Positions 1 through 14,750 of a stretch of DNA of 14,750 bases are shown piece after piece. The stretch is from Escherichia coli. Its GTDB lineage: Bacteria > Pseudomonadota > Gammaproteobacteria > Enterobacterales > Enterobacteriaceae. Every line of letters begins with the position of its first letter. Positions within the stretch are counted from its first letter, which is position 1. Made by a program: the position numbers and the translations under genes. The stretch lies in the NCBI RefSeq assembly GCF_003334315.1, contig NZ_QOWR01000077.1. One strand, 5' to 3'. Under the pieces are notes generated by a model. It was given only the letters and a program-made list of their open reading frames with translations. It ran no database searches and was not told the origin of the DNA.

Positions 1-375
1 GACGAACAGTGGGGCTACGTCGGTGCTAAATCACGTCAGCGCTGGCTGTTTTACGCGTATGACAGGATACGGAGGACAGTTGTGGCGCACGTTTTCGGTG
101 AACGCACTATGGCGACGCTGGGGCGTCTTATGAGCCTGCTGTCACCCTTTGACGTGGTGATATGGATGACGGATGGCTGGCCGCTGTATGAATCCCGCCT
201 GAAGGGAAAGCTGCACGTAATCAGCAAGCGATATACGCAGCGAATTGAGCGGCATAACCTGAATCTGAGGCAGCACCTGGCACGGCTGGGACGGAAGTCG
301 CTGTCGTTCTCAAAATCGGTGGAGCTGCATGACAAAGTCATCGGGCATTATCTGAACATAAAACACTATCAATAA
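1..375 (+). CDS. insB: IS1 transposase InsB, C-terminal part (5' end outside window; normally made as an InsA-InsB fusion by -1 frameshift)
   Basis: Frame 1 from nt 1 reads [67 protein letters not shown]...HYLNIKHYQ*, with the stop at 373-375. The ORF track entry 82..375 is the same frame starting at an internal GTG. Confidence 0.9.
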
Positions 376-390
376 GTTGGAGTCATTACC
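1..390 (+). mobile_element. IS1: IS1 insertion sequence, 3' portion only (right terminus at 390; the rest of the element lies upstream of the window)
   Basis: Sequence ends ...AAACACTATCAATAAGTTGGAGTCATTACC at 361-390, which matches the IS1 right terminal inverted repeat as I recall it. The whole stretch translates in frame as the C-terminal part of InsB. The last ~286 bp are identical to the reverse complement of the IS1 copy at 14298-14583. Confidence 0.93.
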
Positions 391-442
391 TTAAAGCGAT
401 TGTAAGCTAATGTATGTAATAAATGAGATAATTTACAGTAAG

Positions 443-478
443 CTAAAAATCAGCCAGGCGATAATGACCTGGCTGATA
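443..478 (-). terminator. Rho-independent terminator directly downstream of the yeaH stop
   Basis: Perfect 10-bp stem ATCAGCCAGG (449-458) / CCTGGCTGAT (468-477) with a 9-nt loop. On the minus-strand RNA it is followed by UUUU (plus-strand A-run 445-448). It starts 4 nt after the yeaH stop codon (482-484). Confidence 0.7.
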
Positions 479-481
479 GTT

Positions 482-1765
482 TTAGCCTTTAGCTGTTGCA
501 TTTTGTTTATGAAACAGTTCACGGAACACCGGATAAATATCATCCTGGTCGCGGATGTGCTGCATCGCAAAGTTGTCGAAAGTAGATTGCAGATGCTCAT
601 ATTCTCGCCACAATGTCTGATGTGCACGACGGGTAATTTCGATATAGCTGTAATAACGAACAACAGGTAATAATTTTTTCGCCAGGATTTCATGGCAAAG
701 CGGAGAGTCATCGGCCCAGTTATCGCCGTCCGATGCTTGTGCAGCGTAAATATTCCACTGTGCCGGGTTATAACGCTCTTTCACTACCTCATCCATCAGT
801 TTCAGGGCGCTGGAAACAATGGTGCCGCCTGTTTCCTGCGAGTAGAAAAACTCATGTTCATCGACTTCTTTCGCCTGGGTATGATGGCGGATGTATACGA
901 CTTCCACGTTCTTATACGTTCTGCTGAGGAACAGATACAGCAGAATATAAAAACGCTTAGCCATATCTTTAGTGGATTGATCCATTGAACCGGAAACGTC
1001 CATCAGGCAAAACATCACTGCCTGGCTGGAGGGATCGGGCCGCTTCTCGTAGTTCTTGTAACGTAAATCGAAGGTGTCAATAAAAGGGACGCGTTCAATT
1101 TTGGCACGTAATTCTGCAATTTCTTTGCGCAGACGTTCCTCTTCCAGCAGTTGCGCAGGTTCACTGTTGCTGATGATGGCCAAATTCTCTTCCAGTGCAT
1201 GAAGTTCCCGCCGCTTGCCTGCCGTCATGGCTGTGCGTCGCGCCAGTGAGTTCTGCAATGAACGCACAACGCTGATATTGGCCGGAACGCCGTTAGCGGT
1301 ATAACCCGCCCGATGCGTTTTATATTCGGTCAGCTGGCGTTGTTGGTTTTGTTTCAGATTCGGTAAGGCCAAATCTTCAAAGAGCAGATCAAGATACTCA
1401 TCTTTCGAAATCTGAAAGACAAATTCATCCTGACCTTCACCATCCTGGCTGGCCTGGCCCTGACCACTGCCGGAACCTCCGCCGCCACCCTGGGGACGTT
1501 CAATTCGGTCGTTCTGGACGAAATGGTCATTGCCCGGATGCACGCGGTGGCGCAGACCGCCACGCCCCTGATGAAACATCGGTTCGCTAATATCTTCCGT
1601 GGGAATGGATACGGATTCGCCGCTGTCGACGTCAGTCACCGAACGCTTATTAATGGCCTCGGAGATCGACTGTTTAATTTGCGCTTTATAACGGCGTAAA
1701 AAACGCTGGCGATTCACCATGCTTTTGTTTTTGCCGTTCAGACGCCGGTCAATAAACCAGGTCAT
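482..1765 (-). CDS. yeaH: YeaH, DUF444 / vWA-like protein, downstream partner of the PrkA-family kinase YeaG
   Basis: 427-aa ORF, the length I recall for E. coli YeaH. It lies 112 bp downstream of yeaG on the same strand, with a G-rich SD (ACGGGGGG) ahead of the ATG. Confidence 0.93.
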
Positions 1766-12933: not shown

Positions 12934-12953
12934 TTAATATGGGAGAACAGAAC

Positions 12954-13790
12954 ATGCTCGCAGATATCAGATATTGGGAAAACAATGCCACAAATAAACA
13001 TTATGCAATTGCCCATTTTAACGTATGGAATGCAGAAATGTTGATGGGCGTTATCGACGCAGCCGAAGAAGCGAAATCACCGGTTATTATTTCTTTTGGC
13101 ACAGGTTTTGTCGGGAACACCTCATTTGAAGATTTCTCTCACATGATGGTATCAATGGCACAAAAAGCAACGGTGCCGGTAATAACTCATTGGGATCATG
13201 GTCGGAGTATGGAGATTATTCATAACGCCTGGACTCATGGTATGAATTCATTAATGCGTGATGCTTCCGCATTTGATTTCGAAGAAAATATTCGCTTAAC
13301 CAAAGAGGCTGTCGATTTCTTCCATCCGCTGGGTATTCCGGTAGAGGCGGAATTAGGGCATGTCGGTAATGAAACCGTTTATGAGGAAGCGCTGGCGGGC
13401 TATCACTATACCGATCCTTACCAGGCGGCTGAATTTGTTGAACGTACGGGCTGTGATTCATTGGCTGTCGCCATCGGCAACCAGCATGGGGTTTATACGT
13501 CAGAGCCACAATTGAACTTTGAGGTCGTCAAACGCGTACGCGATGCCGTTTCTGTTCCGCTGGTTTTGCACGGTGCATCGGGGATCAGTGATGCCGACAT
13601 TAAAACTGCAATTTCGTTGGGTATCGCGAAAATCAACATTCATACGGAGCTCTGTCAGGCCGCAATGGTTGCAGTGAAAGAAAACCAGGATCAGCCTTTC
13701 CTGCATTTAGAACGTGAAGTACGTAAAGCTGTAAAAGAACGGGCATTGGAAAAAATTAAACTGTTCGGTTCTGATGGCAAAGCGGAATAA
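12954..13790 (+). CDS. ydjI: YdjI, class II (metal-dependent) aldolase of the tagatose/fructose-bisphosphate aldolase family
   Basis: ORF track start is 12939. I prefer ATG 12954 (MLADIRYWENN..., 278 aa) because SD GGGAGA lies 7 nt upstream. Matches YdjI as I recall it. Confidence 0.9.
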   Translation: MLADIRYWENNATNKHYAIAHFNVWNAEMLMGVIDAAEEAKSPVIISFGTGFVGNTSFEDFSHMMVSMAQKATVPVITHWDHGRSMEIIHNAWTHGMNSLMRDASAFDFEENIRLTKEAVDFFHPLGIPVEAELGHVGNETVYEEALAGYHYTDPYQAAEFVERTGCDSLAVAIGNQHGVYTSEPQLNFEVVKRVRDAVSVPLVLHGASGISDADIKTAISLGIAKINIHTELCQAAMVAVKENQDQPFLHLEREVRKAVKERALEKIKLFGSDGKAE

Positions 13791-13794
13791 TGAT

Positions 13795-14297
13795 ATGGAT
13801 AATCTCGACGTTATTTGTATAGGTGCCGCTATTGTTGATATTCCATTGCAACCGGTCAGTAAAAATATCTTTGATGTGGATTCTTATCCTCTTGAAAGAA
13901 TCGCAATGACCACCGGGGGTGATGCAATAAATGAAGCAACAATTATTTCTCGTCTGGGCCATCGCACAGCATTAATGAGTCGTATTGGTAAAGATGCCGC
14001 AGGGCAATTTATTCTCAACCATTGCCGCAAAGAGAATATTGATATTCAAAGCCTGAAGCAGGACGTCAGCATAGATACCTCTATTAACGTTGGACTGGTG
14101 ACGGAGGATGGCGAGCGGACGTTTGTCACAAACCGTAATGGCAGTCTGTGGAAATTGAATATTGACGATGTTGATTTTGCGCGGTTTTCTCAGGCGAAAT
14201 TATTATCACTGGCCAGTATTTTCAACAGTCCACTATTGGATGGTAAAGCGCTAACAGAAATTTTTACGCAAGCTAAAGCCCGGCAGATGATTATCTG
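13795..14297 (+). pseudogene. ydjH: ydjH (pfkB/ribokinase-family sugar kinase), truncated by IS1 insertion after about codon 167
   Basis: Reading frame MDNLDVICIGAAIVD...TQAKARQMII runs straight into the IS1 terminus at 14298 and stops 7 codons later on IS1-derived sequence (WVMTPTY*). I recall the intact protein as ~315 aa. The N-terminal pfkB GG motif (TTGGDAINEA) is present; the C-terminal ATP-binding part is missing. Start could alternatively be ATG 13774, in the same frame. Confidence 0.85.
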
Positions 14298-14750
14298 GGT
14301 AATGACTCCAACTTATTGATAGTGTTTTATGTTCAGATAATGCCCGATGACTTTGTCATGCAGCTCCACCGATTTTGAGAACGACAGCGACTTCCGTCCC
14401 AGCCGTGCCAGGTGCTGCCTCAGATTCAGGTTATGCCGCTCAATTCGCTGCGTATATCGCTTGCTGATTACGTGCAGCTTTCCCTTCAGGCGGGATTCAT
14501 ACAGCGGCCAGCCATCCGTCATCCATATCACCACGTCAAAGGGTGACAGCAGGCTCATAAGACGCCCCAGCGTCGCCATAGTGCGTTCACCGAATACGTG
14601 CGCAACAACCGTCTTCCGGAGCCTGTCATACGCGTAAAACAGCCAGCGCTGGCGCGATTTAGCCCCGACGTATCCCCACTGTTCGTCCATTTCCGCGCAG
14701 ACGATGACGTCACTGCCCGGCTGTATGCGCGAGGTTACCGACTGCGGCCT
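14298..14750 (-). mobile_element. IS1: IS1 insertion sequence, partial (right terminus at 14298; element continues beyond the window), opposite orientation to the copy at 1..390
   Basis: Plus strand from 14298 reads GGTAATGACTCCAACTTATTGATAGTGTTTTATGTTCAGATAATGCCCGATGAC..., the reverse complement of the IS1 right end. The minus strand encodes InsB. Confidence 0.95.
14313..14750 (-). CDS. insB: IS1 transposase InsB (N-terminal part extends past the window edge)
   Basis: Minus-strand frame encodes ...[47 protein letters not shown]...HYLNIKHYQ*, with the stop at 14313-14315. The frame stays open to the window edge. Confidence 0.9.

Follow-up and report, generated by a model that had tools for sequence, protein, structure and literature searches.

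A 14,750 nt stretch of Escherichia coli DNA (contig NZ_QOWR01000077.1 of assembly GCF_003334315.1; this whole stretch is hereafter called the window) carries a chromosomal core that includes gapA and is bordered at each end by a partial copy of the insertion sequence (IS) IS1, and this arrangement is very probably the product of two independent simple IS1 insertions that are seen here as the ends of a draft contig, with the genes most likely in the reference order. The preliminary description of the window had reported that its 13.9-kb core with gapA is bracketed by inverted IS1 copies and had put the segment forward as a candidate for an IS1-mediated inversion. The bracketing was confirmed, with gapA located at 6957-7952 on the minus strand according to the transferred annotation of strain TOE3.

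The identity and orientation of both IS1 arms can be read directly from the window. The left arm (1..390, plus strand) corresponds to IS1 positions 379-768 and the right arm (14298..14750, minus strand) to IS1 positions 316-768, so that each comprises the 3′ part of insB and the right terminal inverted repeat (IRR), and the elements are cut by the window start and the window end, respectively. Sequence identity over the insB 3′ part and the IRR assigned both arms to IS1. The IRR of the left arm ends in …AAGTTGGAGTCATTACC with its last base at 390, and that of the right arm begins at 14298 with GGTAATGACTCCAACTT…, the reverse complement of the terminal repeat on the left. Open reading frames for the C-terminal part of insB were found at 82-375 (+) and 14313-14690 (-), and a repeat finder paired 1-390 with 14298-14687 as inverted arms of 390 nt that are 97% complementary and spaced by 13,907 nt. 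By the repeat finder, the open reading frames and the position of the IRR at 390 and 14298, the IS1 coordinates, the insB strands and the inward-facing insB-proximal ends had all been given correctly in the preliminary description.

The two arms belong to different isoforms. The left arm showed 0/390 mismatches to the annotated IS1 of strain W5-6 (NZ_CP032992.1), and the right arm showed 0/453 mismatches to the annotated IS1 of the enterotoxigenic E. coli (ETEC) strain F5505-C1 (NZ_CP024257.1) and three mismatches to the IS1A copy in strain LR-17-1; each arm is a perfect match of a different naturally occurring isoform, of the W5-6 type on the left and the F5505-C1 type on the right. Between the arms there are 10 differences in 390 positions, all of them at IS1 393-471 (79 bp; window 1-110 versus 14578-14687), while IS1 472-768 (297 nt) is identical. 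Such a mosaic suggests that IS1 isoforms exchanged sequence in the past, by gene conversion or recombination. Further isoform markers are IS1 position 8 (A or C) and position 127. The variant segment of the left arm is uncommon, being found at 99% identity or more in 111 of 9,247 matching records.

Between the arms, the core (391..14297; 13,907 bp, from yeaH to the truncated ydjH′) aligns as a single collinear high-scoring segment pair with K-12, TOE3 and LR-17-1. It is 99.2% identical to K-12 in one collinear block, with 106 mismatches and 2 gaps, differs from TOE3 by 2 mismatches in 13,907 bp, and differs from LR-17-1 by 3 mismatches plus an unrelated extra IS1 in ydjJ. Among 5,426 complete E. 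coli genomes, 4,302 carry at least 80% of the block at a single place. Judged from these alignments, the core is chromosomal DNA native to a phylogroup-A-like E. coli and not cargo, and the earlier statement that the block is unlikely to be acquired cargo holds on the grounds of this collinearity, of its presence in most of the complete genomes and of its occurrence on no real plasmid.

At the right junction, homology to K-12 stops exactly at 14297 (…GATTATCTG), inside codon 168 of ydjH, with nothing missing on the core side, and the nine bases adjoining the right IS1, GATTATCTG at 14289..14297, are presumed to be one copy of a target-site duplication. The truncated ydjH (13795..14319, plus strand) runs through 167 native codons and then through seven codons and a stop contributed by the IS1 IRR, giving a product of 174 amino acids (aa). 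This exact 174-aa YdjH product is on record solely on two Logan short-read contigs of ~13.96 kb; by the same exact-product look-up, neither a 181-aa form of the split YdjH nor the TTG-started ydjH remnants MAASP… and MASSP… are on record. The look-up of a 145-aa ydjH 3′ remnant returned several contigs that start in an IS and continue into the 3′ part of ydjH, and the 90% cluster to which the truncated YdjH belongs comprises 902 members; of the 40 that were read, the named ones are mostly labelled partial. Residue 75 of YdjH (window ~14017-14019) is N in the window and D in K-12, TOE3 and LR-17-1 (FILNHCRK versus FILDHCRK); as far as these comparisons go, the substitution is private, and the gene that carries it is disrupted by IS1 in any case.

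A candidate for the opposite side of this insertion was found on contig L011 (run ERR271230), in which the left terminal inverted repeat (IRL) of IS1 is followed by GATTATCTG and then by TGCCGATATG…, the 3′ part of ydjH. The flank of L011 is TOE3-like (4 mismatches in 6 kb), as is the window core, and the IRL of L011 carries an A at position 8 (GGTGATGaTGCC), as does the IRL of the F5505-C1 isoform, the perfect match of the right arm. Contig L011 fits the partner junction that a simple insertion duplicating the 9 bp at 14289-14297 would be expected to leave, and this junction, together with the A8 IRL, supports the view that the right-hand copy arose by ordinary insertion.

The same position in ydjH has been struck repeatedly, as several assemblies unrelated to one another show within the first 30-190 bases of loci L007-L013. 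In L008, an IS1 IRR is joined to GATTATCTG; in L009, L010 and L012, which have K-12-like backgrounds, an IRR is joined to ATTATCTG; and in L007 an IRL is joined to ATCTGTGCC. In L013, CCGATATG adjoins an element other than IS1, which ends in …TTCAACAAAGCC and looks IS903/IS102-like. At least four independent IS1 insertions therefore lie within 5 bp of ydjH codon ~168, in both orientations, and this density raises the possibility of a real IS1 hot spot: the 9-mer GATTATCTG may be a sequence-specific target that several lineages have used independently in either orientation. An intact 300-bp stretch around the ydjH site was lacking in 41 of 4,291 complete genomes.

At the left junction, homology to K-12 resumes exactly at 391 with TTAAAGCGATTG…, again without any loss on the core side, and the nine bases next to the IS1, TTAAAGCGA at 391..399, are presumed to be a copy of the target-site duplication. 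The insertion point lies in the spacer between yeaH and cdgI (yeaI), 91 bp beyond the stop codon of yeaH and 55 bp upstream of the start of cdgI; the left IS1 separates cdgI from its upstream DNA. IS1 elements within a few hundred bp of this site and in the same orientation were present in 19 complete genomes. The IS1 of F5505-C1 lies in the same spacer and orientation, 18 bp to the left of the window's site (L017 1794-2570), and is a plain insertion whose flanks are collinear and which has a duplication of its own, AAGGTTATG; an ETEC O25 group carries it. These neighbouring insertions are a sign that the yeaH-cdgI spacer has been struck by IS1 repeatedly in unrelated strains.

The nature of the contig ends bears on what the bracket can mean. 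The window is almost certainly a whole short-read draft contig, since both of its ends lie inside IS1 and an independent assembly of run SRR1122540, the 13,960 bp Logan contig SRR1122540_174, breaks at the same repeats. The 10.5 kb fetched from SRR1122540_174 are 100% identical to the core, and 25 nt of IS1 were read at its right end. The public contigs that carry the ydjH junction are solely short-read ones of ~13.96 kb, a size that implies a break inside IS1 at both ends. In relatives with the left-arm isoform, IS1 matches 18 to more than 40 places per record, and from these counts we estimate that several pairs of neighbouring IS1 copies per genome are to be expected less than 14 kb apart, half of them inverted. 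In such an IS1-rich strain most contigs would end in IS1 and half would have inverted arms, so the bracket carries little information; as both window ends lie inside IS1, it is partly the place where the assembler stopped. The window reaches 390 and 453 nt into IS1, far beyond a k-mer, and it ends 12-14 nt past isoform-variable positions (393 on the left, 304 on the right); these ends look like branch points of the assembly graph, with the assembler following isoform-specific paths.

Two simple insertions would account for the window as follows. The strain would be an IS1-rich phylogroup-A E. coli, and the short-read assembler would have halted within an IS1 copy on either side. Two copies of IS1, each of a different isoform, would have inserted independently, one in the yeaH-cdgI spacer and the other at codon 168 of the sugar-kinase gene ydjH, the latter inactivating ydjH. 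Each would have arisen by ordinary IS1 transposition, making a 9-bp target duplication, and their opposite orientation would be due to chance. The likeliest order would then be that of the reference, namely cdgI, IS1, yeaH…gapA…ydjH′, IS1, ′ydjH, ydjG. Independent simple insertions are favoured by the isoform difference between the arms, by the partner junction on L011 and by the plain insertion next to the left site in F5505-C1, and we infer separate duplications for the two copies and a non-inverted order.

Several points weigh against this account. For this strain there is no sequence that crosses either IS1 from end to end, so that the link between inner and outer flanks is unseen, and the outer, cdgI-side junction of the left IS1 with the second copy of its duplication was found nowhere. 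The duplicate on L011 equals 14289-14297 but comes from another sequencing run (ERR271230), and because the ydjH site has been struck repeatedly and independently, L011 may represent a separate event and not the partner junction of this strain. Finally, at the left end of SRR1122540_174, ~28 nt of IS1 are implied by the total length of 13,960 bp and were not read. Wider searches gave no further copy of the pair: exact-junction BLAST detected neither junction in contiguous form in the 5,426 complete E. coli genomes, with only different IS1 insertions nearby, exact 33-34-nt junction patterns had 0 matches each in the metagenome contigs of the Joint Genome Institute, and the whole-window plasmid search returned no IS1-bracketed copy. 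In the literature search, no mention was found of runs SRR1122540, ERR271230 or ERR1681730, nor any source pairing ydjH with IS1.

An unlikely alternative, though the one that fares best, is that the 13.9-kb block is inverted, or occurs in both orientations, as a result of RecA-dependent homologous recombination between the inverted IS1 copies. The substrate for such an event is present, the inverted arms being 97% alike over 390 nt with 297 nt of perfect identity, which is long and similar enough for homologous recombination, and to this extent the earlier suggestion that the IS1 pair could serve as a recombination substrate is borne out. Inversions mediated by IS elements are documented in E. 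coli, in long-term evolution lines (PMC4173774) and in mutation-accumulation lines (PMC5009759), where they were shown by optical maps, polymerase chain reaction or long-range data; in those cases, as here, a chromosomal segment lies between two inverted copies of the same IS, but the window shows the precondition only. With E. coli paired-end data, Lee et al. 2016 (PMC5009759) pointed out that an inversion between IS copies creates no new junction. In the present case the outer flanks would keep the left ends of IS1 and the core ends would keep the right ends, so all four junctions are the same in both states. An inversion is for this reason compatible with the present data, but each junction seen is equally expected without it; positive evidence for an inversion is lacking, and no complete genome carries this pair of insertions, inverted or otherwise.

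Because the junctions are unchanged by an inversion, the orientation of the core can be read neither from the window nor from any short-read contig, and a sequence across the 768-bp IS1 is needed. If the block were inverted, the outward neighbour of the left IS1 would be the 3′ part of ydjH in reverse complement (…CATATCGGCACAGATAATC beside the IRL), and the order would be cdgI-TTAAAGCGA-IS1-CAGATAATC-ydjH5′ (reversed), together with yeaH (reversed)-TCGCTTTAA-IS1-GATTATCTG-ydjH3′. A search for hybrid IS1 elements, in which isoform markers of the outer IRL are compared with those of the inner arm, was considered as a sign of recombination and rejected as uninformative on short contigs, because the outer part of the IS stays with the outer flank in both states.

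It is very improbable that one or both IS1 arms are mis-joins made by the assembler, with the core not truly lying beside IS1. Mis-joins do occur at contig ends in repeats, but the independent assembly of a public run repeats the ydjH-IS1 junction base for base and has a size that fits a left IS1 stub, and two contigs on record carry the truncated YdjH product.

Hardly any weight attaches to the view that the block is a composite transposon (IS1-cargo-IS1), moved or mobile as a unit. IS1 composite transposons exist, for example Tn9 and Tn1681, and two IS1 copies whose IRL ends point outward might in principle cooperate; a Tn1681-type composite likewise consists of inverted IS1 copies flanking a DNA segment. 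The window differs from it in that the supposed cargo is native chromosome in its native place, and neither a plasmid nor a second site carries a copy. Both ends of the core are the sequences that natively adjoin the insertion points, and in L011 the IS1 IRL is joined to the native ydjH 3′ part. The matches in the plasmid collection that cover at least 80% of the window are ~98% identical, two in 4.9-Mb chromosome-sized records, and all without the IS1 junctions. The block was found neither at a non-native site nor as a unit on another replicon. Equally far-fetched is a one-step origin of the inverted pair through duplicative inversion, in which a single IS1 undergoes intramolecular replicative transposition, its new copy is laid down in inverted orientation and the DNA between the two copies is flipped: by our own reasoning from the Shapiro model this would yield the observed geometry of inverted copies with the same end inward, but it demands replicas, and arms that differ at 10 of 390 positions, each identical to another natural isoform, are not replicas from one such event.

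The genes of the core were placed by annotation transfer. From left to right they are yeaH (482-1765, -), yeaG (1878-3812, -), mipA (4248-4994, +), yeaE (5084-5938, +) and yeaD (5989-6873, -), followed after gapA by msrB (8294-8707, +), yeaC (8749-9021, +), ydjL (9391-10467, +), ydjK (10494-11873, +), ydjJ (11890-12933, +), ydjI (12954-13790, +) and the first 167 codons of ydjH, ydjH′ (13795-14297, +). No RNA family was found within the window by Rfam. The additional IS1 in ydjJ of LR-17-1 lies at L016 14590-15357 with the duplication GAAGTTTTG, and it again points to a ydj operon that is dispensable and a frequent target of IS elements in this lineage.

Compared with simple insertions of IS1 in E. 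coli (IS1A/IS1B), the two copies of the window are alike in arm identity, in their typical IRR and in the 3′ part of insB, and their sites are likewise an AT-rich spacer and a gene; at ydjH the sequence would be consistent with a 9-bp duplication. No material difference was found; the two positions are absent from the 5,426 complete RefSeq genomes and are, trivially, new alleles relative to the complete genomes searched, with nothing new in kind.

For the biology of the organism, IS-mediated inversion in E. coli is already well known and the finding in the window is an ordinary one. If the block were in fact inverted, or switching in the population, gapA, yeaGH and the ydj operons would be reversed relative to replication, which would add one more small case of IS-mediated inversion, and, apart from the loss of ydjH through the insertion itself, it would be expected to have no phenotypic effect. 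As a lesson of method, the same IS at both ends of a contig indicates that a short-read assembly broke at repeats and is uninformative on an inversion between them. A mildly useful by-product is the indication that IS1 strikes both the ydjH site and the yeaH-cdgI spacer again and again in unrelated strains.

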